Source: Patescibacteria group bacterium (GTDB lineage Bacteria; Patescibacteriota; Microgenomatia; UBA12405). From it: 64,000 nucleotides of DNA. Under the pieces are notes generated by a model. It ran no database searches. It saw only the letters and a list, made by a program, of their open reading frames with translations, and was not told where the DNA came from. This document shows positions 2,108 to 29,160 of this stretch, in pieces; position 1 is the stretch's first letter; every line of letters begins with the position of its first letter. The stretch spans positions 8,950-72,949 of the forward strand of contig JAHIPV010000009.1 of NCBI GenBank assembly GCA_018902845.1, read 5' to 3'. A program made the translations under genes and the position numbers.

Positions 2108-3334
2108 GTGATGAAAAGGATTTTGATTTCTTGTACTTATTATGAACCAAATATTTCTGGAGTGACTGTATACGCCAGAATTTTGGCTGAAAAGATGGTT
2201 GGTGAAGGCTTTGACATAACCGTATTAAGTTCCAGATTTCAAAAAAACTTGGCAAAACAAAAAACAAAAAATGGAGTGAAAATAAAAAGATCTAGGGTAC
2301 TGTTTAGACTGAGCAAGGGTGTTTTTATGCCATTTTTCTGGCTGGATGCAATAAAAGAAGTTAAAAAAACGGATATTGTCAATTGTCATTTGCCACAAGT
2401 GGAATCTTTTATTTTGGCCATATTGGCAAAAATTTTTAAAAAAAGATTAATAGTAACGCATCATTGTGAATTTGGAATTGATGGGCTTTGGCACAATAAA
2501 ATAATCGGCTTAGTCACCTACCCTTTTCATTTTTTAACTTACTTATTAGCTGACAAAATCGTTTCTTATACAAAAGATTACGCTTATGTCTCAATTTTTT
2601 TGAGATTTTTTAAGAAAAAACTTATTTTTGTTTTACCACCGGCAGTGGTGGGAAAAGAAAATAAATTAAAAATCAAAGAGATCCTTCGGTCGCTAGAGCT
2701 TCCTTGGGATGACGGCGAGAGCGTCATTCTGAGCGGAAGCGAAGAATCCCAAATGAAATGCTTAACTCCCACGGGATCCCTCGACTTCGCTCGGGATGAC
2801 AGTGTCAAAATAATCGGATATGTGGGTAGAATTGGGTGGGAGAAAGGGCTAAATTTTTTGATTATGGCATGTAAAAAAATTAACGAAAAAAGAAAAGTCA
2901 AACTAGTATTGGTAGGGCCATATGAAAATGTGGCCGGAGATGGGAGTTATAAAAAATTAAGAGGATTAATCAAAAAAAATAAAGACTTGGTGGTTTTGCT
3001 TGGAGCAATAGACCATGAGGATTTGGCTAATTTTTATAAAACTTGTGATTGCTTGGTTTTGCCAAGCACTAATAATTTGGAAACTTTTGGGATTGTACAA
3101 ATTGAGGCGATGGTGTCGGGATGCGGTGTAGTGGCGTCTGATTTACCTGGGGTAAGAATGCCGGTTAAATTAACCGGAATGGGAAAAATTGCAAAAATTG
3201 GGGATAGCAATGATCTGGCAAAAAAAATAGAACAAGTTTTGGAGAGTAAGTACAGCAAAAAACAGATTAAAAAAGCTAGGGAGATTTTTAGTTCGGAAAG
3301 ATTTATTAAAGAATATAAAAAGATTTTCTGGTAA
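2108..3334 (+). CDS. Glycosyltransferase family 4 (GT-B fold). The real start is probably the ATG at 2111. Carries an in-frame repeat insertion at 2681-2803.
   Basis: N-terminal Glyco_trans_4-like region and C-terminal Glycos_transf_1 region with motif ETFGIVQIEAMVSGCGVV. The middle segment ELPWDDGESVILSGSEESQMKCLTPTGSLDFARDDS is a translated repeat element. Confidence 0.8.
   Translation: MMKRILISCTYYEPNISGVTVYARILAEKMVGEGFDITVLSSRFQKNLAKQKTKNGVKIKRSRVLFRLSKGVFMPFFWLDAIKEVKKTDIVNCHLPQVESFILAILAKIFKKRLIVTHHCEFGIDGLWHNKIIGLVTYPFHFLTYLLADKIVSYTKDYAYVSIFLRFFKKKLIFVLPPAVVGKENKLKIKEILRSLELPWDDGESVILSGSEESQMKCLTPTGSLDFARDDSVKIIGYVGRIGWEKGLNFLIMACKKINEKRKVKLVLVGPYENVAGDGSYKKLRGLIKKNKDLVVLLGAIDHEDLANFYKTCDCLVLPSTNNLETFGIVQIEAMVSGCGVVASDLPGVRMPVKLTGMGKIAKIGDSNDLAKKIEQVLESKYSKKQIKKAREIFSSERFIKEYKKIFW
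2681..2803. repeat. ~123-bp composite repeat block inserted in frame in the GT4 gene
   Basis: Contains TCCTTCGGTCGC, GTCATTCTGAGCGGAAGCGAAGAATCCC and GGGATCCCTCGACTTCGCTCGGGATGACAG. Confidence 0.85.
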
Positions 3335-3344
3335 AATTGAGTAT

Positions 3345-3551
3345 ATGTATGATTGGAGTACTGACACAACAAGGCTAATAAAGGATAAAGATGCGTGGGA
3401 GAAATGGAAATTAGAGCAAATGATTAATTTTGGTTTAAACGGCAAAAAACTCTCAAAATTAAAATTAAAAAAGTATTGGGATGAATTAGATATAGATCCT
3501 GATAAAAGAAATTATTTAAAGTTTTTGCTATGGGAAGATCCTAATTATTGA
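3345..3551 (+). CDS. Hypothetical small Trp-rich protein
   Basis: 68-aa ORF immediately downstream of the GT4 gene. No recognisable motif. Confidence 0.3.
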   Translation: MYDWSTDTTRLIKDKDAWEKWKLEQMINFGLNGKKLSKLKLKKYWDELDIDPDKRNYLKFLLWEDPNY

Positions 3552-3582
3552 CTTTTGTTAATACTGAGTATATGATATTAAT

Positions 3583-3822
3583 ATGTTGCAATTAATAACA
3601 ATAACACCAAATTGGCAATTTTATATTCCAGGAAATATTAGAAAACAAATAAAATTAAACAGACCAACAAAAGCTAAAATAAGTGTAAAGAATAAAAAAA
3701 TCGTTATTGAACCAATTAAAAGTAAAATATTGACTGGTGCCGGTATGTTTGCCGGCTCTAAGCCAAACAGAAAGATCGATGTTGATAATATCCGGGATTT
3801 TATAGATTATTCGCAATGGTGA
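3583..3822 (+). CDS. AbrB/SpoVT-family antitoxin (VapB-like)
   Basis: 79 aa with a swapped-hairpin-like N-terminus (NWQFYIPGNIRKQIKL). Overlaps the downstream PIN gene by 7 nt. Confidence 0.55.
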   Translation: MLQLITITPNWQFYIPGNIRKQIKLNRPTKAKISVKNKKIVIEPIKSKILTGAGMFAGSKPNRKIDVDNIRDFIDYSQW

Positions 3823-4235
3823 AAATAAAAAAAGTTTTTATTGATACAAATTTTTGGATTCGTTATTTTACTAAAGACAACGAAATTCAATATAAGGCAA
3901 CGGTTGATTTGGTTGAAAAAATTGAGTCTGGTAAGTTTCGTCCTTTTATTTCTGCCATTGTTTTTCTTGAAATTAACTTCGTTCTTTCTCAATTGTACGA
4001 TAAAAATTTAAAGCAAATAAATAAATGCTTTGATTTGATAATGTCATTAAGAAACCTTGTTATTGTAAATAAAACTGATTTTGAAAAAGCTTTAAAATGG
4101 CATAGGAATTTGAAAATTAAACTACCAGATTGCCTAATCGCATCTTGTCTTCCAGATAATTGTGTTTTAGTAAGTTGGGATAAAGATTTTAATAAAATAA
4201 AAGAGATTGATAGTAAAAAACCTAGCGAGTTTTAA
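3816..4235 (+). CDS. vapC: PIN-domain toxin (VapC-like)
   Basis: N-terminal FIDTNFWIRYF motif with acidic residues typical of a PIN domain. 139 aa, translationally coupled to the upstream antitoxin. Confidence 0.7.
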   Translation: MVKIKKVFIDTNFWIRYFTKDNEIQYKATVDLVEKIESGKFRPFISAIVFLEINFVLSQLYDKNLKQINKCFDLIMSLRNLVIVNKTDFEKALKWHRNLKIKLPDCLIASCLPDNCVLVSWDKDFNKIKEIDSKKPSEF

Positions 4236-5029
4236 TTCTTTGTTGCAAATAAAAAGCCTATGTTATTGTGAATTGGGTTTGGGTGAGTTTTGATTTTAAA
4301 ACCATTTTTACTAAAAGTATTGATTAAATCTTTAAGCTTGTTTGTGGGATTAAATAAATGATATTCCATGATAATATTTTCGATTTTTTGATAAGTTTCT
4401 TTGTTTAAATTAAGAAAAATATCAAATTCGGCGCCTTCACAATCACATTTAAGCAAATTACAAGTTTTGATTTTGTTAACTTGAAAATATTTTGATAATG
4501 GCATTGATTTTACTCTCTCTCTCTCTCTCTCTCTCTCGATTCCGACTTCTTGAATTGTCCTCGTGTTTAGAAAGTTGGAACTGTTTATATTCAGAGTTAT
4601 ATTATTATTTGTGGCAATGGCAAGATTGTTTGTAAAAATATTTTTTATTTTATTTTGAGTTATATTTTTTTGTAAAAGTTTACATGATTCAAAGAAAGGT
4701 TCAATTGCATAAATTGTATTAGATTTAGATTTTTTGGCGGCAAAAATTGAAAAATCCCCCACTCCCGCCCCTATGTCAATTATTATCCAGTTTTTTTTAA
4801 TTTTTATTCCAAAAACTTCATAATCTTTTTTTAGATAAGTCTCTGTTAAAACCCACAAATCCATTATGTTTCGCAGTTGGAATTTTGTTTTGTCTTTTAA
4901 AACAATGGTCGTGTTTTTGCTTGTATGAAAAATTTGATTAAAAAATAATTTTGATAGAGAAAAAGTCGGATGTTTAATGTTTGTAAACAAAACAAATAAA
5001 GTTTGAAGATAATAAAATATTTTTTTCAT
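4232..5029 (-). CDS. FkbM-family SAM-dependent methyltransferase. Contains a (CT)12 microsatellite.
   Basis: Motif IIDIGAGVGDFSIFAA and downstream KCDCEGAEFDIF resemble FkbM. The ERERERER run is encoded by (CT)12 at 4513-4537. Confidence 0.7.
   Translation of the reverse strand: MKKIFYYLQTLFVLFTNIKHPTFSLSKLFFNQIFHTSKNTTIVLKDKTKFQLRNIMDLWVLTETYLKKDYEVFGIKIKKNWIIIDIGAGVGDFSIFAAKKSKSNTIYAIEPFFESCKLLQKNITQNKIKNIFTNNLAIATNNNITLNINSSNFLNTRTIQEVGIERERERERVKSMPLSKYFQVNKIKTCNLLKCDCEGAEFDIFLNLNKETYQKIENIIMEYHLFNPTNKLKDLINTFSKNGFKIKTHPNPIHNNIGFLFATKN
4513..4537. repeat. (CT)12 dinucleotide microsatellite inside the FkbM methyltransferase CDS
   Basis: Perfect CT repeat read directly from the sequence. 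It encodes ERERERER on the minus strand. Confidence 0.9.
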
Positions 5030-6936
5030 TTTTTCTTAAAAATTAAAACTTTGGGGTGGTCGTAGACGGTGAAGGCTTCTTCGGATGTGTCGTCGCGGAT
5101 GTAAATACCGGGGTATAGGCATTGGCTATCAATAGTAAACCATTTATTTGTTTTTTCTTTGTAAGGAAAATTGGTGGGGCCGAAATAATAACATTTTTTT
5201 AAAAATGGCAGGTTTATCCCTGGGTAAGAATTAATTTCTATTAATTTTGTAAAACTTAATTTTTCATCAAAGAGGTTTTGGTAAAATTTTGATGTTTGGG
5301 GATATTTGTTTGGTACTGGCGGGATGGAACCCCAAAGACGATTTGATGACATGATCATATAATCGGCATTATTTATAATTGGACTTAATCTTTGCCATTT
5401 TTCTGGTGTGTCTGGATCGTAAAGCGATAGCATTTGACCACTGTAACTGCTGGCAGTTTGTTTTGGTAAGTTTAATGGAAGAGGATCGTCCCAATATTCA
5501 TTTGTAATTAAGGATTCAATGGGAATATTTTTGTAAATCCAGTTTGATGCCTGAACGCGGGAATGAGGGCGGGAATAGATAGATAGAAAAGAAATGCAAA
5601 ATATAAAATGGAAAATAAAAGTAGTAAAAATGAATTTTAAATTAGAGGTTGGCTTGATAGCGAGCAAACATATAAATGGGTAGATTGGTAAAAAATAACG
5701 CATAGTAGTGACAAATTGAGAGCCCTGAAAAAAGAAAAGAAGGATAATCCAAGCCAACAAGAGAAAAACAATAGGATTGTGATTTTTTAAGATTTTGAGT
5801 TTTGTTCCAAAATCAGTGGTTATAAGATTCCTCGACTTCGCTCGGAATGACACGATTGTTTTGAGAGTGAAACTGATAATTTTAAAAAGTGAAATGAAAA
5901 ATAGGATTGATAGAGGTAAACCAATGCCCCAGAAAACAAGATTTTTTAGGGGGAAAAGAATGGGAGTTTTACTTAGCCATTGAACGGCTGGTGGAAACCA
6001 AGCATCTGGATCATTAAACGACTGAAGTGTTTTTAAATTGTCAATAAACTGAGGGTTGGGTTTGATAAGGGAAACAAAAGCGTATGGCTGAACAAGACGA
6101 AAAACAAGAAAAGTAGTTAGCAAAAAGTAAGATCCGAGAAAAATTAACTTGATTAAACGAATGATATTAAAAAAGTTTTTGGTTTTAAAAAAATAAAACA
6201 AAAAGAATAAAGCAATAACTGGAGAAAAAAGAAGAGCAGAAATTTTAGATGCCATGGCAAGACCAAAAAAAATTGGCGAGAGAAGTAAACTCCAGCTCTG
6301 CTGGAGACCTCGAACAAGTCGAGAGATCCCTCGACTACGCTCGGGATGACAGTTTCTTTTTGTTAGCCAGTGAGATAATAGTGTAAAAGTGGCGAAAATA
6401 AAGAAGTTTAAGAAAGTGTCAACGGCAAAAAAATGAGAGAGCTGAATTGGAAAAATACAGGTTGCGTAGAAAAGGCTGGGAAGAAAATATAATAACGGCC
6501 AGGTGTTTTTTGACTTGGGTGAGGTTTTGTTGCGACTGTATAATGGTTGTTTCTTGAAAATTAACTTTGAAATAAGATACAAGGAAAAAATGTTTAGGGA
6601 ATCAAAAAAAGCTGAAAGTGCGCGACCCAGAAAGTGAATTTTACCGTAAGAATCGAGATTTAGTATGGTGGCTAAATATTTTGTCAAAAAAATAGGAAAG
6701 GTGCCATAAACAAAAAACTGATATTCTTTATAGTTGTATGGATTTAGCGGAGAGATATTAGTATTTAGGTATTGTGTAAAGGAAATCGGAAGTTTTATTC
6801 TTTCGGTTACCATGGTCAAAAATCTTTCGTCTGGGTGGAGATGCTGATCGTTGTCCCAATTAATACCGTAAAGACGAAGAGACAAGGCAAAGAGGAAGAT
6901 AAGGATTAAAATTATTTTGTTTTTATGATTTTTCAT
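5026..6936 (-). CDS. GT-C fold membrane glycosyltransferase (PMT/ArnT-like) with two in-frame repeat insertions
   Basis: 636 aa, polytopic, with an HPDERF loop motif after TM1. Repeat-derived segments are HPERSRGISRLVRGLQ (6309-6352) and SFRAKSRN (5827-5854). Confidence 0.55.
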   Translation of the reverse strand: MKNHKNKIILILIFLFALSLRLYGINWDNDQHLHPDERFLTMVTERIKLPISFTQYLNTNISPLNPYNYKEYQFFVYGTFPIFLTKYLATILNLDSYGKIHFLGRALSAFFDSLNIFSLYLISKLIFKKQPLYSRNKTSPKSKNTWPLLYFLPSLFYATCIFPIQLSHFFAVDTFLNFFIFATFTLLSHWLTKRNCHPERSRGISRLVRGLQQSWSLLLSPIFFGLAMASKISALLFSPVIALFFLFYFFKTKNFFNIIRLIKLIFLGSYFLLTTFLVFRLVQPYAFVSLIKPNPQFIDNLKTLQSFNDPDAWFPPAVQWLSKTPILFPLKNLVFWGIGLPLSILFFISLFKIISFTLKTIVSFRAKSRNLITTDFGTKLKILKNHNPIVFLLLAWIILLFFFQGSQFVTTMRYFLPIYPFICLLAIKPTSNLKFIFTTFIFHFIFCISFLSIYSRPHSRVQASNWIYKNIPIESLITNEYWDDPLPLNLPKQTASSYSGQMLSLYDPDTPEKWQRLSPIINNADYMIMSSNRLWGSIPPVPNKYPQTSKFYQNLFDEKLSFTKLIEINSYPGINLPFLKKCYYFGPTNFPYKEKTNKWFTIDSQCLYPGIYIRDDTSEEAFTVYDHPKVLIFKKK

Positions 6937-8660
6937 AAAATTAAGTCTTCTATTTCTTCTTTTGATAAATAATTTTGTTTTTTGTAAATTCTTATAACAG
7001 GATGATCAAATACGGAAAAGGTTTCTTCGGCATTTTCATCTGATAAAAGGAACGGAAAAACTGAAAACTGTTTTAATTTTTCAAATCCCAGTTTACCAGA
7101 AAAAAGAGTTTGGTAATATTTCTGAGAGTATGGAAAAAGGGATCCTTCTCCCGCCACGGCGGGATCAGGATGACGACGGTATTGGTTTTTGAAGATACGG
7201 CGGGATGGTATAAGTATGTAATCACTCTGATGAATCTGTTCTACTAACAGTTTTGGTGAATCAGGATCGCTGTCCAAATTGTAAAAATCAAAATTGTGTA
7301 CGTCTAACTGATGCTGATTAACCGGTACGTTTATAACATTGCCGGCTTCAGAAAGAATTTTTGTATGAGGCAAGAGGTTATTTTTAAGCCAATCAGAGGC
7401 AGTTATGCGAATATCTGGTTTTAAATAAATTGAAAAAAATATAATTCCGGGTAATATTGAAAAAATGATTAATATTTTTGATAAAAATTTGTATTTTTTG
7501 ATCTGTTGAAAAAAAACGATTGATAAAAAAGGAAAAACAAAAAAAATCGGAGACATGAAACGAGACCATTTGGTGTAAAGAAAAGAATTGTAAAAAAAAT
7601 AGACAAGAGCAGGAATGAGAACGACTAGCCAGTTAATTAATGTGTCATCCCGCTTAGCGGGACGTGGTGATCTCGTAGGAAATGTAAAAGATGTGGTTGT
7701 AACTCCGGCGGGATTGCCACGTCGTAAAACTCCTCGCAATGACAGAATTGCTCCAATTATTGCAAATAGCAATACAGGCGGGCCGACGGCGTAGGGGAAA
7801 ATTTTGGTAAATTGAAAAAGAATTGGTGTGGAGTTTAAAAACTGGTTAGTGTAGAACATTTTAGTTTTTCCCATAGCAACAGAGGTTTCATAATTTAAGG
7901 TTGATCTAAAATCAGGTCCGGCAATAAGGTTGAATGGAGAAAAAATTATGAAAAATAGAGTGCTATTGAGTAAAAGAAAAGAAGTGAGAAGAAGTAGGTA
8001 ATTTTTTTTATTTTTTTTAAAAAAAGCAAAAAAAATAGACAAAAGCATTGGACCAAGAAAAAAAAGAGAAGTGATTTTTGAAGCCAAGCCAATACCGGTG
8101 ATAATCGAGGATAAAAATATACTTACCAGAGATTGATTTTGATAAAAATTGAGAGCCAAAAATATGTTTATGGCGAAAACGAAAATAAGCAAGGATTCGG
8201 TGGTACCAAAATGAGCTAATTGTATTAAGGCCGGTGTAAAAATTAAAAATAAAAGCAATAAAACACTTTGTTTAAATGAAAAAAATAATTTTTTGGAAAT
8301 TAAATAAAAAATGAAAACTGAAATTGAAGAAAAAAGAGATGAATAAAACCTCAGCATCAAAACAGAGTTAATAAAATTATTTGGTAGTTTTAATGAATAA
8401 AGAGTGAAAAAAGCCAGATAGAGAGGAAATTGACCATAAGCAAAAAAATGAGGGTTTAAGTCCGTTATTTTTAATTTTGATATAGCAGTGGCCATATTGT
8501 TTTCATCCGGATGAAAAAAATAAGAATCCGCCCAATCAAGTTTATAAAAACGAGTGAGGATAGTAAGAAAAAAGAGAAAAAAGATTAAAAATGTTTTTTT
8601 TGAGAAAAACGCTTCGCTAGATTTTTGGGGCTGTTTTTTAAATAACATAGATAATAGCAA
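6933..8660 (-). CDS. GT-C fold membrane glycosyltransferase (paralog) with an in-frame repeat insertion
   Basis: 575 aa, polytopic, with an FHPDEN loop motif similar to the neighbouring paralog. The segment RRGNPAGVTTTSFTFPTRSPRPAKRDDT is encoded by repeat modules at 7643-7745. Confidence 0.55.
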   Translation of the reverse strand: MLLSMLFKKQPQKSSEAFFSKKTFLIFFLFFLTILTRFYKLDWADSYFFHPDENNMATAISKLKITDLNPHFFAYGQFPLYLAFFTLYSLKLPNNFINSVLMLRFYSSLFSSISVFIFYLISKKLFFSFKQSVLLLLFLIFTPALIQLAHFGTTESLLIFVFAINIFLALNFYQNQSLVSIFLSSIITGIGLASKITSLFFLGPMLLSIFFAFFKKNKKNYLLLLTSFLLLNSTLFFIIFSPFNLIAGPDFRSTLNYETSVAMGKTKMFYTNQFLNSTPILFQFTKIFPYAVGPPVLLFAIIGAILSLRGVLRRGNPAGVTTTSFTFPTRSPRPAKRDDTLINWLVVLIPALVYFFYNSFLYTKWSRFMSPIFFVFPFLSIVFFQQIKKYKFLSKILIIFSILPGIIFFSIYLKPDIRITASDWLKNNLLPHTKILSEAGNVINVPVNQHQLDVHNFDFYNLDSDPDSPKLLVEQIHQSDYILIPSRRIFKNQYRRHPDPAVAGEGSLFPYSQKYYQTLFSGKLGFEKLKQFSVFPFLLSDENAEETFSVFDHPVIRIYKKQNYLSKEEIEDLIL

Positions 8661-9573
8661 TCATCATTAGTCCCCAGGAAAGTACAGAAATCAAAATTGG
8701 TATATCGGTGGCGATTATTTTTTCTGGTCTTTCGCCTTCCTGCATTTCAAAGATTATTTGACCATATCTCATGATACCGATTATGACAGGAAACAAAGTT
8801 ATCATATACCATTTGCGATTAAGGGCTTTTGGGATGTTATTTAAAAGAAATTGATGAATTAATCCATCAAAATGAACCGGTTCTTCAAAAAAAGTGAACA
8901 TAGCGTATGTAATAAGAGTGGCAACGGCAAAAATAGATGAATAAAAATTAAGCAAAGCTTTTGTATAGCCCTGTAAGGCTGGTCTGGTTTTTTTACCGGT
9001 ACCAACCAATTCGCTCCTGCGTTTACCACTGGCGATAAAAAGAGAAAGAAAAATAACCGTAAGCATTAACCAAACCGGAAGATGATAACCAGTGGCCAAT
9101 TCACCAGCATAGACACGAATGATAAAAAATAACGATATGCCCAAAATGTCGAAAAGTGCTTTCTTTTTGAAAACAAATGAGTACATAAATTGAAGACAAA
9201 TAAATAGAAGAGAAGTCACAAAAAATGAGATATTGATTGACAAAGAAATAAAAAGACCCAAGATTGCCAAGAGAAAAGAGACAAAGATAGCTTCGTTTTT
9301 TAATAAAACACCACGAGCCAAGGGGCGGTTACATTTGGTAGGGTGCATTTTATCTTTTTCTATATCTACAATATCGTTAACCAGATAAGACGAAGACGAT
9401 AAAAAAGAAAAAGTGCAAAAAGCCAGAATTGATTTTAACAAAAGACTGGAATCTAGTAGTTGACCGTTGATAATTAAAGCGGCAAAAAGACTGAGATTTT
9501 TTATCCATTGTGTTGGCCTTAAGGCCTCAAAAACGGACAAAAACTTAGAGTTTTTATTATTTTGACCCGACAC
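8638..9573 (-). CDS. UbiA-family prenyl-phosphate phosphoribosyltransferase (decaprenyl-phosphate phosphoribosyltransferase-like)
   Basis: Motif NDIVDIEKDKMHPTKCNRPLARG matches the NDxxDxxxDxxHPxKxxRPxAxG signature of DPPR synthase-type UbiA enzymes. About 8 TM helices. Confidence 0.7.
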   Translation of the reverse strand: MSGQNNKNSKFLSVFEALRPTQWIKNLSLFAALIINGQLLDSSLLLKSILAFCTFSFLSSSSYLVNDIVDIEKDKMHPTKCNRPLARGVLLKNEAIFVSFLLAILGLFISLSINISFFVTSLLFICLQFMYSFVFKKKALFDILGISLFFIIRVYAGELATGYHLPVWLMLTVIFLSLFIASGKRRSELVGTGKKTRPALQGYTKALLNFYSSIFAVATLITYAMFTFFEEPVHFDGLIHQFLLNNIPKALNRKWYMITLFPVIIGIMRYGQIIFEMQEGERPEKIIATDIPILISVLSWGLMMIAIIYVI

Positions 9574-9574
9574 A

Positions 9575-10417
9575 TTACAATAATATCAGAAGTCCTAGCA
9601 AGGAAACAATGGATCCAAATATCATTAAGCCCTTGGTGGGGAAGTCAACACCAGCATCGGGTAGAACTATTCTGGTTGGACTTGGACCTTGGGCTATATA
9701 GACAGGTGTATCGGTTGGTCTTGGAGTGCTGGTTGGCTGTGGAGTTCCTGTGGGGGTATTGGTGGGTGTGTTGGTTGGAGTATTAGTGGGTGTGTTAGTG
9801 GGCGTATTGGTTGGAGTGCTGGTAGGAGCGGTACAGCAAGTAAGGTAAGAAGGGTTGATAATACAAGCATCTTCAAATTGAGACATAGCACAGTAAGAGT
9901 TACCGTCATCAGTATCGATACAAATTAGACCAGATTGACAAGGATTAGACGAATCGTCGCAGGGAGTATAGCCACAGGCATTTGGTTCTGGAGTTGGGGT
10001 GTTGGTTGGAGTATTAGTGGGTGTGTTAGTGGGCGTATTGGTTGGAGTGCTGGTTGGGGCGGTACAACAAGTGATATAGGAAGGGTTGATAATACAAGTG
10101 TCTTCAAATTGAGACATAGCACAGTAAGAGTTGCCATCATCAGCATCGATACAAATTAGACCAGATTGACAAGGATTGGATGAATCATCGCAGGGAGTGT
10201 AACCACAAGCATTTGGCTTTGGAGTTGGAGCGACTACGGTAAAGTTTAAACTACAGGGCAGAGGTGCTTCTTGAGCCTGCGGTCTTTCCGGTACAGTTGG
10301 CTTAACTTCTTCCTGGCTAATTTGTTTTAGCCGTTGAGCAGTCAAAATTGCCACACCGGCCAGAATAATGGTGCTAATCAGGCTAATAATGATGGTTAAT
10401 TTTTTCTTTTTATTCAT
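9575..10417 (-). CDS. Secreted/anchored Cys-rich repeat protein with Thr-Pro linkers. The start is probably the internal Met at 10417.
   Basis: N-terminal TM/signal sequence (MNKKKKLTIIISLISTIILAGV). Two near-identical ~65-aa Cys-rich modules (NACGYTPCDDSSNPCQSGLICID...CC), each followed by TPTNTPTN linkers. Confidence 0.6.
   Translation of the reverse strand: MNKKKKLTIIISLISTIILAGVAILTAQRLKQISQEEVKPTVPERPQAQEAPLPCSLNFTVVAPTPKPNACGYTPCDDSSNPCQSGLICIDADDGNSYCAMSQFEDTCIINPSYITCCTAPTSTPTNTPTNTPTNTPTNTPTPEPNACGYTPCDDSSNPCQSGLICIDTDDGNSYCAMSQFEDACIINPSYLTCCTAPTSTPTNTPTNTPTNTPTNTPTNTPTGTPQPTSTPRPTDTPVYIAQGPSPTRIVLPDAGVDFPTKGLMIFGSIVSLLGLLILL
9735..10225. repeat. Two tandem ~240-bp near-identical repeats encoding the Cys-rich module plus TPTN linker
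   Basis: Long identical stretches, e.g. GGTTGATAATACAAG..TCTTCAAATTGAGACATAGCACAGTAAGAGTT.. appears twice. Confidence 0.85.
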
Positions 10418-10419
10418 AA

Positions 10420-11946
10420 TTATTGGGCTGCCCCCCAGGTGGTACAGTTGCCTTCCTTGCAAACACGGCATTGGACACTATAGGCACCAGGAATATCAAT
10501 AGTGATTGATTGAGAATCAGCCATCCAGTGGTCAGCGCCGGCATAATCAGCAAAACGTAAACTTGTAACAACCCAAGGAATATTATTGTAGTCTCCGGCA
10601 TCAATGTTATAGCGGAAGTCGAACCGATCGGGACCGTAGTTATTGGTGCCAGTATCAACACAAGTAAAATTAACTTCATCACCTAAACTCGGAGTACCAG
10701 ACGGATCCATGGTGATGTCAACACAAGCAAGTTCAGGTAGTGGTGTTGGCGTGGGGGTGTTAGTTGGAGTGCTGGTGGGAGCGGTACAACAAGTGATATA
10801 GGAAGGGTTGATAATACAAGCGTCTTCAAATTGAGACATAGAGCAGTATGAATTGCCATTATCAGCATCGACACAAATTAGACCAGGCTGACAAGGACTG
10901 GATGAATCATCGCAGGGAGTATAGCCACAGGCATTTGGTTCTGGAGTTGGAATTTGTGTAGGAGTATTGGTGGGGGTGGGAGTGGGAGTTCTGGTGGGGG
11001 TGGGAGTTAAGGTAGGGGTGCTGACTCTGGTTGGAGTAGGTGTTGGGATTCTGGTGGGGGTAGGAGTAGTAAGTGTGATGGTTTCAGTACAAACAGAGTT
11101 TGCCTGAGACGGCCAAGAATCGTTTGAAACAGCTGGATTTTTTACAACAACAGAGATATTAGTTCCGTTTAGATTGGCTATATTTGTAAATGTGTGAGTA
11201 GCGGTACAGATAATTTTTTTGGCTCTAGGATCATGACCCATAATTGCCCATGATTGAGTGGTACCGGTAGATGAATCGGGTTGGCAAGTTGATGTAATTC
11301 CTTCGTCTCCGGAAGTCATTGTGGTTGAACCCGATAAGGCAAACTTAAATTTAACTGCACTGCTATTCATAATAATTGAGGCGCAACCTTCGCCATGTGG
11401 ATCACTGATATCACTAGGACAAGCTAGTTTGCTTGTCGCCGGCAATTCACTATAACCTGTTGCTGTTATTGTCAAATTTTCTCCATCAATACGATATTGA
11501 ACATCGATACAATCGTCACAATTTGTGTCATTGTTTCTGTATAAACTGGCGGCACCGTAACCGCTATAAAATTGGTCTTTTTGAAGGGAAGAACATTTAA
11601 CGGGATAATTACCGTAGACATCGGTTGCTTCTCCGCCAACCTGACATGATCCTGGTGGTCCAAAATTTGGACCTCCTAGCGGAGGACTATTTTCACCGTC
11701 TTTTTTTATTCTAGTAATTGAATAGAAATTTGAAGTTTCTCTGCCACAAGGGCCAGAGATATTTCCATTGCACCAGAAACACCAATCCCAGTATTGATCC
11801 AAGGCAACATCGTATGCTTTGTCACGAATATCCTGTTTCTGTTTGACTAAAACAACGCCAGCGACTAGAGATAAGAATAAAAAAAATACCGACAGGACAG
11901 GATATAATTTTTCTGCTGATTTAAATTTTTCGAGTATTTTGGCCAT
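10420..11946 (-). CDS. Secreted Cys-rich surface protein carrying one copy of the same module
   Basis: N-terminal signal/TM, many Cys, a TPTPT linker region, and one copy of the NACGYTPCDDSSSPCQPGLICVD module shared with the downstream gene. Confidence 0.6.
   Translation of the reverse strand: MAKILEKFKSAEKLYPVLSVFFLFLSLVAGVVLVKQKQDIRDKAYDVALDQYWDWCFWCNGNISGPCGRETSNFYSITRIKKDGENSPPLGGPNFGPPGSCQVGGEATDVYGNYPVKCSSLQKDQFYSGYGAASLYRNNDTNCDDCIDVQYRIDGENLTITATGYSELPATSKLACPSDISDPHGEGCASIIMNSSAVKFKFALSGSTTMTSGDEGITSTCQPDSSTGTTQSWAIMGHDPRAKKIICTATHTFTNIANLNGTNISVVVKNPAVSNDSWPSQANSVCTETITLTTPTPTRIPTPTPTRVSTPTLTPTPTRTPTPTPTNTPTQIPTPEPNACGYTPCDDSSSPCQPGLICVDADNGNSYCSMSQFEDACIINPSYITCCTAPTSTPTNTPTPTPLPELACVDITMDPSGTPSLGDEVNFTCVDTGTNNYGPDRFDFRYNIDAGDYNNIPWVVTSLRFADYAGADHWMADSQSITIDIPGAYSVQCRVCKEGNCTTWGAAQ
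10745..10950. repeat. Third copy of the Cys-rich module repeat, in the adjacent gene
   Basis: GGTTGATAATACAAGCGTCTTCAAATTGAGACATAGAGCAGTATGAATTGCC is highly similar to the copies at 9735-10225. Confidence 0.8.
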
Positions 11947-12005: not shown

Positions 12006-13337
12006 CTAGATTAATAGTAGTGCGATAATTATTGCAGGAATTGATAAAAGAAGAGGCAGGGTGGTTGGTAAGGTAAAACCGGTAGTTGGAACTTGCGAAT
12101 CAGTACTAGGCTTGGCGGTTCTGATAGTGATGGTTGGAGTTAGACTTGGAGTCTGGGTGGGTGTGGAAGTTGAGGTTGGACTAAGAGTGAGGACAGGAGT
12201 GGGAGTAAAGGTAGAGGTGGGGGTAAGGGTAGGGATATTGGTTGGTTGGGCCGATGAGGAAGCGGTGAACCCGGGATTATCTTGGGCCGCCAAAACAACA
12301 AAACTTTTTGTAATGCTCTCCTTTAATCCAGTTTTCGGATTAAGAAAACTTATTGTCAGACTGTGTTGCCCTGGTGACAGGGACTGGGGAGAGCTCCAGC
12401 GCCAATTTCCACTAGAATCGCTTTGAATTTCTGAATCGAACTGATCGGATGAGTGAAGTTCAATTTTTAGAATAACACCTTGCGGAGCAGTCCCAAAAAA
12501 TTCCGGTTGTTGTGTAGATAAAAATTCACCGTCTTTGGGGTTGATAATATCTAGCTCTTTTTCTATGGCTTGATCTGGCTGTTGTTGTGTAACGGGCATA
12601 TTGCCAATGTCTTGTTCTCTATTGTTATTTTCATCTGAAGAAAATCCGTGACCAATAATAATATCCGGTACCGGATTATTGTTTGATGTATTGCCTGTTA
12701 CTAAAGTAACCTGACCGTCTTTAGAAAGAACGGCAATCTCTTCCTCTACATTTTCCGGTGGGACAAACCAAGAACTTTTTTGAGTGTTATAGCTGATGCT
12801 TAGTGGAATATTCCAGTTACCTTCTGACGTAACAAAAGAGGACATAGGAGCGGAAGAAGGGATATTTAGATAAAGGATGGCGATAGAAGCCGGCTGTTGA
12901 TTTGACTGTATAATTTTTCCCCAGGCTAAATTTGAATCAGGAATAGGGCCATCAAGCTTAGCTGGGGTGCTTATAACAAATTGATCGTTTTCAATTTCCT
13001 TTCCGTTGGCAATGATGGTGTATTGGTAACTTGAATTTTCCTTAAGTCCATTTACCTGAAAATAATGTATTTGGCTTTGAGGTTCAATTAATTGAAAAGA
13101 ATCTAAAACAAGCTGATTGTTTATGCCAAGGTTAACCGAGCATTTCTCTGGCGTTAAAAAAGACAAATCGACAGAGTGATCCGTTAAATTAGTAATTTGT
13201 ATACTTATCGGACTGCAACCGTTACTTGCCTTAGAAGTAAAAATTGCAGTAAGTTTGGTTAAATAGGTAGTAACAAAAACAACAATGATCAAAATGAAAA
13301 TAGCTACAATGGTTGGTATTTTTTTTTCTTTACTCAT
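12006..13337 (-). CDS. Secreted Thr/Pro-rich protein with C-terminal hydrophobic anchor
   Basis: N-terminal TM, a long TPTSTFTPTP linker, and a C-terminal LPTTLP motif followed by a hydrophobic tail. This could be a sorting signal. Confidence 0.5.
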   Translation of the reverse strand: MSKEKKIPTIVAIFILIIVVFVTTYLTKLTAIFTSKASNGCSPISIQITNLTDHSVDLSFLTPEKCSVNLGINNQLVLDSFQLIEPQSQIHYFQVNGLKENSSYQYTIIANGKEIENDQFVISTPAKLDGPIPDSNLAWGKIIQSNQQPASIAILYLNIPSSAPMSSFVTSEGNWNIPLSISYNTQKSSWFVPPENVEEEIAVLSKDGQVTLVTGNTSNNNPVPDIIIGHGFSSDENNNREQDIGNMPVTQQQPDQAIEKELDIINPKDGEFLSTQQPEFFGTAPQGVILKIELHSSDQFDSEIQSDSSGNWRWSSPQSLSPGQHSLTISFLNPKTGLKESITKSFVVLAAQDNPGFTASSSAQPTNIPTLTPTSTFTPTPVLTLSPTSTSTPTQTPSLTPTITIRTAKPSTDSQVPTTGFTLPTTLPLLLSIPAIIIALLLI

Positions 13338-13635
13338 TTGGATTTATAGTCGGCTCCTCTTCTGACCCTAGCGTTGGCTGAAGTATTGAGGACGGAGAGG
13401 CAATAATACTGGGGCGACTAATTGGAACAGAGGTAAATTCATCTCGTTTTTCAATTTCCAACAAAGTGTCGATGTTAAGGTTGGGATCAATTTTTTGCAT
13501 AACTGAACTGGTTTTGATTTGCTGAGATGGACCAATCAGATTAGAGTAACTTTTTTGTACTATCAAGAAAAAAATTAAAAAGAGAGTAAAACTACTGATA
13601 AAAATAAGATATTTAGAGATTTTTTGTTTTTTCAT
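13330..13635 (-). CDS. Small secreted/membrane protein
   Basis: 101 aa with an N-terminal hydrophobic segment, in an operon with the surface proteins. Confidence 0.3.
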   Translation of the reverse strand: MKKQKISKYLIFISSFTLFLIFFLIVQKSYSNLIGPSQQIKTSSVMQKIDPNLNIDTLLEIEKRDEFTSVPISRPSIIASPSSILQPTLGSEEEPTINPNE

Positions 13636-14299
13636 CGTTTTCTGACCAATAGTAAATATTTGTTTTTATGCTGGCATTAAAGACGGCCTCGTCCTCCTGG
13701 CCAGATTGTTTGCTTTTTTTTTGGCTAAGCTCTATCCTGTCAATTTTTATAAGACGGCGATTATTGGAAAAATCCTGAACCAAAAAAGGGATTTTGGAAA
13801 AATTGGTAGTGTTGTCGTCAATGTTGACTGAATAAAAACTAGTCATATCAAAATCAGAAGAGGAAAATTCTTTTTCATCATTTAGATCAAATTTAATCTC
13901 GTTGAGATTAATATCGGAGTTGTGGGCAATATTTTTAAGCTGAATAGCGGCATGAGCAAATCGGGGACTACTGGGAAGACTTGATTCTATCAATGAATAT
14001 TTTTCCTGAATGTCAGAAAATGCATCCTGTGCATAAACCAAATCGTTTATTTTTGAACGCATTTGATCTGAAAGAGACTGTTTGGCACGGATTTCACCAA
14101 CAAGGCTGGAAATAGTGGTAATTGCCGGCCTGACGGCAGAAAAAAGAAAAACGGAAATTAAAAAGAAGGTGGCCGAAATTTCTACTGTTTGACCAAACCT
14201 TTTGTTTTCCCTCTGTTTTGCCAAAAACTCGGTCAGCGAACTGACCTGGGCAACGATGACATTTTTTTTAAGTGGTTTTGTTATTGTTGTTTGTTTCAT
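13613..14299 (-). CDS. Bitopic membrane protein (PilO-like or FtsB-like; uncertain)
   Basis: A single TM helix after about 50 aa, followed by a coiled-coil-rich periplasmic region. Confidence 0.3.
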   Translation of the reverse strand: MKQTTITKPLKKNVIVAQVSSLTEFLAKQRENKRFGQTVEISATFFLISVFLFSAVRPAITTISSLVGEIRAKQSLSDQMRSKINDLVYAQDAFSDIQEKYSLIESSLPSSPRFAHAAIQLKNIAHNSDINLNEIKFDLNDEKEFSSSDFDMTSFYSVNIDDNTTNFSKIPFLVQDFSNNRRLIKIDRIELSQKKSKQSGQEDEAVFNASIKTNIYYWSENDEKTKNL

Positions 14300-14852
14300 T
14301 TTTGAATTCGACTAGAATATCGATGAGGTAATCTCTAGTTTTTGGTTTTTTGCTTATTTTTTCAATAGTTACACTTTTTATATCTTGATTTAGATTTAGG
14401 TTGTCGATAAAATTTGCGATTAATTCGACTTTTGTTGTTGACACAGAAACAACGGCTAAAATTTTGTTATCCTTGGTCGAAAGTGAAAGATTTTTGTATA
14501 GAATATTCGGAGGAGTGCTTTCGGACAGACTAAGCAACTTTGAAGCATAGTCAATGTTGTTGTCGCTTAGTTCTTTTATAGCCTTTAACCTGGCTTGTAG
14601 AGTCGAGTAGTCAACCTCAAAAAGAGCCGTACTTTCCAAAATGGCTTTTTGTTGTCTGATTGACTCTGACAAATCTGAATTTTTCCTGTCCAACCAAAAA
14701 CGAGATACGAAAGCAGCAATAACTATTAATTCGGTAAAAATAATAACTACGCGACCAACCGTAGTTATCCAGCGAATCAGCTTGGCAGTAGATGAGTTAT
14801 TGTCTTGATCTTTAGGTAGAAGCGAAATTTCCCTTTTAAAATTGGCAGGCAT
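14268..14852 (-). CDS. Bitopic membrane protein (PilN-like; uncertain)
   Basis: One N-terminal TM helix followed by a coiled coil. Directly downstream of murJ. Confidence 0.3.
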   Translation of the reverse strand: MPANFKREISLLPKDQDNNSSTAKLIRWITTVGRVVIIFTELIVIAAFVSRFWLDRKNSDLSESIRQQKAILESTALFEVDYSTLQARLKAIKELSDNNIDYASKLLSLSESTPPNILYKNLSLSTKDNKILAVVSVSTTKVELIANFIDNLNLNQDIKSVTIEKISKKPKTRDYLIDILVEFKNETNNNNKTT

Positions 14853-29081: not shown

Positions 29082-29160
29082 ACGGGATTGCTACGTCGTG
29101 AGATTCCTCGCAATGACAGCAAAGGTTTTGGGGTTGGAGTTGGGTTGGAGTTGGGTTAGA
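29082..29160. repeat. GC-rich repeat module plus a short tandem GGGTTGGAGTTG repeat
   Basis: CCACGTCGTGAGATTCCTCGCAATGACAG followed by (GGTTGGAGTTGG)-like units. Confidence 0.7.

Follow-up and report, generated by a model that had tools for sequence, protein, structure and literature searches.

What does a small, cysteine-rich module that is repeated across two adjacent genes contribute to a bacterial surface protein, and how readily do its copies change? The question is raised by a 64,000-nucleotide (nt) stretch of contig JAHIPV010000009.1 from a Patescibacteria group bacterium (assembly GCA_018902845.1), which was analyzed as a whole and is referred to here as the window. Two neighboring genes on its minus strand, g1 and g2, carry the module; g1 contains two tandem copies and the upstream g2 contains one. 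The interpretation that we favor, with a probability of roughly 0.55, casts the module as a rigid, wall-proximal spacer whose copy number changes over evolution, and g2 and g1 as a conserved pair whose products would be joined by a disulfide tether.

The tandem copies were reported by Tandem Repeats Finder as a 231-nt period with 2.0 copies at 9763-10228 (91% matches), and a repeat search of the window returned a three-copy, 261-nt repeat family at 9789-10049, 10020-10280 and 10742-11002, with the third copy 722 nt away. No further copy of the module was found elsewhere in the 64-kb window. Each copy encodes eight Cys within the core peptide CGYTPCDDSSNPCQSGLICIDADDGNSYCAMSQFEDTCIINPSYITCC or one of two variants of it. 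An earlier, sequence-only reading of this DNA had located the repeats, quoted the module peptide and counted its cysteines and its copies in the two adjacent genes correctly, but it described the repeats as near-identical and the module with its linker as ~65 amino acids (aa) long. The first description was overstated, as identity among the three copies in register is 86.9-89.9% across 198 nt (86.4-90.7% across the 54-codon, 162-nt core), and the longest identical DNA runs between them are 40-54 nt. The g1 repeat unit is 77 aa long and consists of a 48-aa Cys core plus a 29-aa Thr/Pro linker. The linkers themselves contain imperfect 12-nt TPTN-type arrays with 74-78% matches (Tandem Repeats Finder).

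The copies differ at 20-26 of the 198 positions, mostly synonymously and everywhere in frame, with ratios of synonymous to non-synonymous differing codons of 14:4, 13:7 and 17:7 for the copy pairs. Over the 54-codon core, synonymous divergence (dS) is 0.31-0.63, so the duplication was not very recent. Non-synonymous divergence (dN) is 0.024-0.057; with a dN/dS of 0.04-0.16, the module peptide is therefore under strong purifying selection. The window is a contig of a metagenome-assembled genome (MAG), and contigs of several related assemblies break at these repeats, as they might if the duplication had been created during assembly. We find this barely credible given the in-frame, mostly synonymous differences, the multi-copy architectures that are common elsewhere in the family (see below) and the recurrence of this structure in two assemblies that were deposited separately. 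The window matches the MAG contig JAHIMY010000014.1 (GCA_018895715.1) at 100% identity and a contig of GCA_022013015.1 at 99.99%, and the latter has the same 2+1 arrangement of modules.

A profile built from the three window copies was run against 1.84 billion representative proteins and matched 124 protein clusters at E <= 1e-3 (52 at E <= 1e-10). Local hidden Markov model iteration resolved 170 module domains in 123 proteins, and 163 of these domains contain exactly eight Cys. Most proteins carry one module (89), while others have two (24), three (7) or four (3). The core spans 48 residues with the pattern C-x4-C-x6-C-x5-C-x9-C-x8-C-x8-CC; the spacing found in the window, 4-6-5-9-8-8-0, is the commonest form in the family (68 of 163 domains), for which the consensus is TPxPxxCGxxxCDNxTNPCxSGLxCVxAxDGxxYCSxPEYxxACxxNPSxxSCCTAP. 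The eight invariant Cys presumably form four disulfides. Modules are mostly acidic, with net charges of -6 to -7 in the window and a family median of -2 (range -16 to +4), and their surface residues and charge differ widely between members. We rejected a calcium-binding 'DxDxDG' reading of IDADDGNSY, as only the D-G turn is conserved in the family.

The named sources of the module are Patescibacteria group bacteria, Candidatus Roizmanbacteria (six species representatives) and Candidatus Woesebacteria. Six contigs labelled uncultured Gammaproteobacteria/Pseudomonadales (third-party annotation MAGs; loci L012, L018, L020, L021, L022 and L024; GC content 35-44%) also carry it. The translated identity of L012 and L020-L022 to Roizmanbacteria/Patescibacteria loci is 52-68% across roughly half their length, so the labels of these four are probably wrong; the one match of L018 and L024, weak and partial, is to the Woesebacteria locus L023.

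The sequence-only reading had not recognized the module, and our searches of Pfam, NCBIfam and the PDB bear this out. Neither g1 nor g2 has a relevant match in Pfam or NCBIfam that would place it in a curated domain family, and this includes the g2 head domain. Against PDB sequences, phmmer returned nothing significant for either protein (best E 0.1, antibody light chains). When 75 isolated modules were compared with Pfam, only sub-threshold matches were obtained (DX in 8 members, E >= 0.0055; Toxin_22; Squash), and no curated family was matched by more than three of 119 full-length members. An AlphaFold2 (AF2) model of the module, built with a 75-sequence alignment, is compact and confident (predicted local distance difference test score, pLDDT, 94.0; predicted template modeling score, pTM, 0.77), with a beta-hairpin at 21-25/31-35 and helices at 36-44 and 48-52. 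The structure prediction and wider search that the earlier reading proposed thus yielded a confident fold and a broad family but no significant structural neighbor. Foldseek found nothing at E <= 0.001 in PDB and BFVD; the best match was the N-domain of IGFBP4 (2dsp_B; E = 0.87, TMq 0.52), and spider inhibitor cystine knot (ICK) toxins were also near. The module is a Patescibacteria domain family that is uncatalogued in the databases searched.

These weak matches also bear on whether the module is a protease-inhibitor-like or toxin-like surface knottin, used for defence or acting on a host. A few members have sub-threshold Pfam matches to Squash inhibitors, Magi/ion-channel toxins and a metallocarboxypeptidase inhibitor, and the ICK toxins among the Foldseek neighbors reach a template modeling (TM) score of ~0.5. 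However, every match is below its curated threshold or has E > 0.8, the module has eight Cys rather than six, its C-terminal helical half is foreign to ICK peptides, no reactive-site loop is conserved, and it lies within long stalks adjoining the anchor. We regard this explanation as very improbable.

Family members share a common plan of an N-terminal hydrophobic segment, a variable head, Thr/Pro linkers, one to four modules, a short linker and a C-terminal signal, in which [LIV]P-x-[TAS]-G is followed by a hydrophobic tail. The heads are often Cys-rich and have no known domains. In 102 complete anchored proteins, the distance from the last module to the C-terminus has a median of 48 aa (interquartile range 39-89), and 68% of the 30 residues preceding the first module are Thr, Pro or Ser. 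The signal motifs include IPxAG (18), LPxSG (14), LPxAG (13), LLxTG (11) and LPxTG (5), and 99 of 124 members pass a crude test for the motif plus a hydrophobic tail. One protein, P0009 (LPQTG), is named by NCBI as an 'LPXTG cell wall anchor domain-containing protein'. A sortase is encoded in one complete Microgenomates genome, Ch65 (PMC7143001), and Peregrinibacteria genomes are reported to encode one as well (PMC4736985). Because the module always sits in Thr/Pro linkers and almost always lies just before a sortase-type signal, we read it as a candidate bead of a wall-proximal stalk: rigid, disulfide-locked and mostly acidic, it would likely hold the variable head domains off the cell wall.

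Two variations on this plan were observed. In Roizmanbacteria-type loci (L017, L019, L020, L021 and L025), single-chain members start with a conserved cytoplasmic 'M(D/E)NFTPLK…KKKK' before the membrane segment and close with 'TPTEIILAK…LLQTG' followed by a tail; L017 contains a tandem pair of these genes. In one subfamily (P0009, P0007, P0010, P0020, P0024 and others), a second small domain with six Cys, 'CNDxCxxNxDCxNxSHICYNGRCRLDxNPE…C', lies between the modules and an LPxTGP-type signal.

The earlier assignment of both window genes to surface proteins also held, in that each has an N-terminal hydrophobic anchor and Thr/Pro linkers, and g1 additionally has LPDAG with a hydrophobic tail. From its N-terminus, g1 consists of the anchor, a CxLxFxV motif, module a, a Thr/Pro linker, module b, a second such linker and the sorting-type signal. 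LPDAG is followed by 24 aa (VDFPTKGLMIFGSIVSLLGLLILL), of which the last 16 are hydrophobic (...LLILL), so g1 has the hydrophobic segment expected after the motif of a sortase substrate. The signature 'PTRI[VI]LPxxG[VIF][DEN][FL]P' around the signal is common to g1, P0064, P0012, P0035, P0038, P0078 and P0022. The g1 start codon is most likely the ATG at 10417 rather than 10471; the longer open reading frame (ORF) overlaps g2 and is not the form called in the sister assembly GCA_022013015.1, where g1 is 280 aa. Its 17 Cys divide as 1+8+8. A lipobox reading of the extra residue, Cys55, was rejected in the absence of an L-[AS]-[GA]-C context.

The product of g2, identical to the hypothetical protein MBU4264717.1 (Patescibacteria group bacterium) at NCBI, is arranged as a signal anchor, a 12-Cys head, a Thr/Pro linker, the module, another Thr/Pro linker and a 5-Cys C-terminal domain, without a C-terminal sorting signal. 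Its N-terminal hydrophobic segment is kept in P0064 and in the L006 orthologue. The AF2 model of the C-terminal domain is all-beta, with six long strands and one short (pLDDT 69.5, a moderate model quality), which agrees with the seven-strand beta-sandwich of FN3/Ig-like folds. Its top Foldseek neighbors are FN3 domains (E = 7.8e-4, probability 1.0, TM 0.59-0.61), and Pfam fn3 does not match it. The same FN3-like 5-Cys domain occurs in P0102, P0120 and P0099 and in the upstream partners in L006, L009, L024, L026, L027 and L029.

A 12-sequence sub-alignment of modules retrieved 15 contig loci, and g2 as a query retrieved L006. Of 11 loci, 10 have a g2-type gene directly upstream of a g1-type gene (the window, L006, L007, L008, L009/L010, L024, L026, L027, L028, which is a fragment, and L029). 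After the N-terminal segment, g1-type proteins share the stretch APxAPxSxPAA…C-x-L-x-F-x-V. In the 17 family members with C-x-[LIV]-x-[FYW]-x-[LIV], this Cys is the first of the protein, and the Cys count is odd in all. Among representatives, odd counts were found in 17 of 17 g1-type and 6 of 7 g2-type proteins, and in 37 of 100 other members. The motif is also present in the L006 g1 orthologue, which lacks modules; this protein and the L007 partner have exactly one Cys each, the motif Cys, and the L006 g2 orthologue has 17 (12+5). The odd parity in both partners suggests a disulfide-linked head-stalk pair. Since each partner apparently has one unpaired Cys, g2, as an anchorless head protein, would probably be tethered by one intermolecular disulfide to g1, an anchored stalk with its CxLxFxV motif near the N-terminus. 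A more tentative extension, which we consider possible but doubtful, is that the genes are an undescribed two-gene surface-display cassette, conserved across Microgenomates-type Patescibacteria, with disulfide coupling at APxAPxSxPAA...C-x-L-x-F-x-V, possible beta-strand complementation and a stalk length tuned by modules. No thioredoxin- or DsbA-like CxxC protein was found in the window. In three unrelated contigs (L009, L026 and L027), the pair is followed by genes for a YknX-like membrane-fusion protein and a MacB/FtsX-type ABC transporter, which could be an export or processing partner.

Comparison of related loci shows that module number changes. The L006 contig (Joint Genome Institute) contains an orthologous g2/g1 pair in which the module is absent from both genes. 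Its g2 orthologue is 48% identical to g2 over the head and 28% over the C-terminal domain and lacks g2 residues 293-405, that is, linker, module and linker; its g1 orthologue (159 aa) retains the N-terminal segment, the motif, a Thr/Pro linker and an LPEAG signal. In L003, which is syntenic with the window, a single gene (P0064) at the module position has one module and a g1-like signal, and P0012 combines a head of the P0064 type with two modules. We considered a P0064-like fused ancestor that later split into g2 and g1, and dropped this scheme, as the L006 pair is conserved without modules. Tandem modules in other family members are 38-72% identical in amino acid sequence, whereas the window copies are 87-93% identical, and therefore the duplication or homogenization in the window is lineage-specific. 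In P0011 and P0016, positional orthologues are 80-90% identical, versus 40-53% for neighboring modules. A lineage-specific expansion may thus have put one copy in g2 and two in g1, with later divergence mostly synonymous.

Alternatively, the module itself could bind a ligand or mediate adhesion (for example as a knottin-, CBM1- or hevein-like binder of carbohydrate or as a binder of a host surface), with copies that tune avidity and not reach. The strong purifying selection noted above is compatible with such a role, as are an almost invariant Tyr preceding Cys5, conservation of an Asn-Pro-Ser stretch (consensus NPS), an N-terminal hairpin weakly like knottins, the IGFBP N-domain and CBM1 (TM 0.4-0.5), the sub-threshold matches to DX, Squash and Toxin_22, and the attachment role proposed for Cys-rich extracellular proteins of the Candidate Phyla Radiation (CPR; PMC4736985). 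Yet no structural match is significant (best E = 0.87), and conservation falls mostly on Cys, Gly, Pro and Tyr, residues typical of a scaffold, while surface residues and net charge vary across the family. In addition, the module adjoins the anchor and not the distal end, and it is missing from the orthologous pair that retains the head and the FN3-like domain. We judge a binding role to be unlikely.

Signs of exchange between copies were seen in several places. Sites along the three window copies form a mosaic, in which g1 module b groups with g2 at the 5' end and g1 module a mostly does so in the 3' part. Behind both g1 modules, the linker DNA is the same over 54 nt, though the cores differ at dS 0.63. 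In L030, a 99%-identical strain, the g2 linker contains an 8-aa indel, and four blocks that switch between window alleles a and b make up the first g1 module. The earlier proposal of recent duplication or gene conversion therefore needs to be divided, as a recent duplication is at odds with a dS of 0.3-0.6 and exchange is supported by the mosaic sites and the 54-nt run. Similarly, the recombinational expansion, contraction or shuffling that it envisaged is partly supported over evolutionary time, with 0, 1 or 2 copies in orthologues, but not as a rapid process resembling phase variation.

A rapid process would make the locus a contingency locus, in which frequent recombination or slippage between copies and TPTN repeats alters the stalk within populations, as in Rib/alpha-C. 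The tandem arrangement with a third copy nearby, the 12-nt TPTN periodicity, the linker indel and mosaic module of the 99%-identical strain and the contig breaks at the repeats are all compatible with this possibility. Recombination-prone size-variation repeats are, however, marked by tandem DNA that is more than about 95% identical. The window copies are 86-91% identical with identical runs of at most 54 nt, the TPTN arrays are imperfect, the 2+1 structure recurs in two independent assemblies at 99.99% identity, and a dS of 0.3-0.6 represents long coexistence without homogenization of the cores. A rapid contingency-locus role at this level of identity is unlikely, and we give it little weight. 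Under the spacer interpretation, module number (0-4) would instead shift through duplication, loss and gene conversion between copies in repetitive linker DNA, on an evolutionary timescale rather than within populations.

Several observations weigh against the spacer and tether interpretation. The spacer role is read from the position and the dispensability of the module, and the strong purifying selection would fit a binding unit equally well. The pentapeptide in g1 is LPDAG, with Ala replacing the Thr of LPXTG, and the tail has no basic end; a K or R within the final 8 residues was found in only 11 of 124 members. The NCBIfam anchor models do not match g1, and no sortase-like TLxTC motif was found in the ORFs of the 64-kb window. 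For the pair, L018 is the sole exception to the gene order: its g1-type gene follows a pgk-like gene. As for Cys parity, the count is even (20) in the L026 partner and odd in 37% of other family members. Finally, the L030 contig stops within the repeat, so its mosaic module might be a chimera created during assembly. The coordinates of the features discussed here are collected in Table 1.

Table 1. Positions of the g3, g2 and g1 genes and of their component parts in the window.
Feature	Position	Strand	Description
g3	12006..13337	-	443-aa surface protein: Ig-like region, Thr/Pro linker, VPTTG + hydrophobic tail; no module
g2	10420..11946	-	508-aa anchorless surface protein, 25 Cys (12+8+5)
g2 N-terminal hydrophobic segment	11842..11907	-	LYPVLSVFFLFLSLVAGVVLVK; signal peptide or signal anchor (sequence inspection)
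g2 head domain	11071..11814	-	~248 aa, 12 Cys; 48% identical to L006 orthologue
g2 Thr/Pro linker 1	10942..11070	-	8-aa insertion here in 99%-identical strain
g2 module copy	10786..10929	-	8-Cys core, C340-C387
g2 Thr/Pro linker 2	10732..10785	-	
g2 C-terminal FN3/Ig-like beta-sandwich	10423..10731	-	5 conserved Cys, ...C...FxC...QCxxC...C..W
g1	9575..10417	-	280-aa stalk protein; ATG 2 nt after g2 stop
g1 N-terminal hydrophobic segment	10337..10402	-	Aligns with L006 orthologue
g1 CSLNFTVV motif	10232..10255	-	Sole extra Cys (Cys55); proposed docking or disulfide site
g1 module copy a	10064..10207	-	8-Cys core
g1 Thr/Pro linker between modules a and b	9977..10063	-	TPTN repeats, 12-nt period
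g1 module copy b	9833..9976	-	8-Cys core
g1 Thr/Pro linker 3	9665..9832	-	First 54 nt identical to linker after module a
g1 C-terminal sorting-type signal	9578..9664	-	LPDAG (9650-9664) + 24-aa tail

Upstream of g2 on the minus strand (12006-14852) lie g3, a 101-aa protein and PilO-like and PilN-like proteins, which follow MurJ. The Ig-like region of g3 has a Big_13 match below threshold. L003 has the order MurJ, PilN-like, an unannotated 206-aa gene at the PilO-like position and a 424-aa gene at the g3 position (matched by position), then UbiA and PMT_2. Abutting g1 on its downstream side (6933-9573, minus strand; 2108-6936), a UbiA-family prenyltransferase and a PMT_2 (GT-C) glycosyltransferase come first, and further envelope genes include those for a 636-aa protein without a Pfam match and an FkbM methyltransferase as well as a GT4 gene. 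The same downstream order follows the module gene in L003, and synteny was seen only in close relatives. A promoter/terminator scan, which was uninformative, gave no terminator-like site on the minus strand from g3 to the UbiA gene. Actinobacterial Pmt performs O-glycosylation, and we speculate that genes of the UbiA/PMT_2 region might O-glycosylate the Thr/Pro linkers.

Two further features were observed among the downstream genes. The PMT_2-type glycosyltransferase gene (6933-8660) contains an in-frame, GC-rich insert of ~100 nt (7640-7745, minus strand) that encodes 'SLRGVLRRGNPAGVTTTSFTFPTRSPRPAKRDD'. The core of the insert, GTCATTGCGAGGAG-N5-CGACGTGGCAATC, recurs at 29086-29117 (minus strand) with 2 mismatches, where none would be expected by chance. 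The gene is 575 aa as an ORF here and 571 aa in sister assemblies, and its L003 orthologue is 532 aa. The insert has the appearance of a small, palindromic repeat element that coding sequence tolerates. A PIN-domain gene (3816-4235, plus strand) with small upstream ORFs lies amid the envelope genes, according to the existing annotation of the identical contig, and is likely part of a toxin-antitoxin pair with them.

Several known systems resemble parts of this arrangement. Sortase-anchored LPXTG proteins (Rib/alpha-C and Aap/SasG) likewise have an N-terminal secretion signal, a distal variable domain and small repeated domains, with Pro/Thr-rich segments beside [LIV]PxxG plus a hydrophobic tail and a copy number that varies among relatives. 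In contrast to those Gram-positive wall proteins, the repeat here is a four-disulfide mini-domain, which is unusual there; the module family mostly has LPxAG, IPSAG or LLQTG without a basic tail, in a CPR host; and the DNA repeats in the window reach 86-91% identity, short of nearly 100%. Knottin/ICK proteins and the IGFBP N-domain are also small disulfide-rich folds with a central beta-hairpin, and the module motif 'CG..(x)C....PC..GL.C' resembles the latter, although this match is not significant. The module differs from both in its eight Cys ending in a CC pair and its C-terminal two-helix half.

The large Cys-rich proteins of Peregrinibacteria, also CPR organisms, are likewise extracellular, strain-variable, proposed to serve attachment or rigidity, and encoded in genomes with a sortase. 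These proteins average 1,655 aa and have a weak similarity to Myxococcus Cys-rich repeats (PMC4736985). Neither the 48-aa module nor the Thr/Pro linker architecture nor the head/stalk pair is described there (PMC4736985). Finally, fungal and bacterial cellulase-type domains are joined by O-glycosylated Thr/Pro linkers to CBM1, another small disulfide domain, and 1cbh is among the weak Foldseek neighbors of the module, with a similarity that is not significant. In our proteins, however, the module lies beside an anchor signal and not a catalytic domain, and glycosylation of the linkers is a guess. The module is a new variation on known repeat-bearing, sortase-type surface proteins.

A large part of bacterial diversity belongs to the Patescibacteria (CPR). 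To our knowledge, the cultivated representatives all live attached to other microbes, and we know of almost no annotation of their surface proteins other than type IV pili. A confidently predicted domain family with a clear sequence signature and a regular place in the protein architecture provides an annotation handle on more than 100 clusters of 'hypothetical' surface proteins, and the head-stalk pair offers a concrete hypothesis for how variable, probably host-facing domains could be mounted on the wall. Because these organisms are usually recovered from anoxic groundwater, the finding of putative four-disulfide extracellular domains makes it a question how and where the bonds would form.

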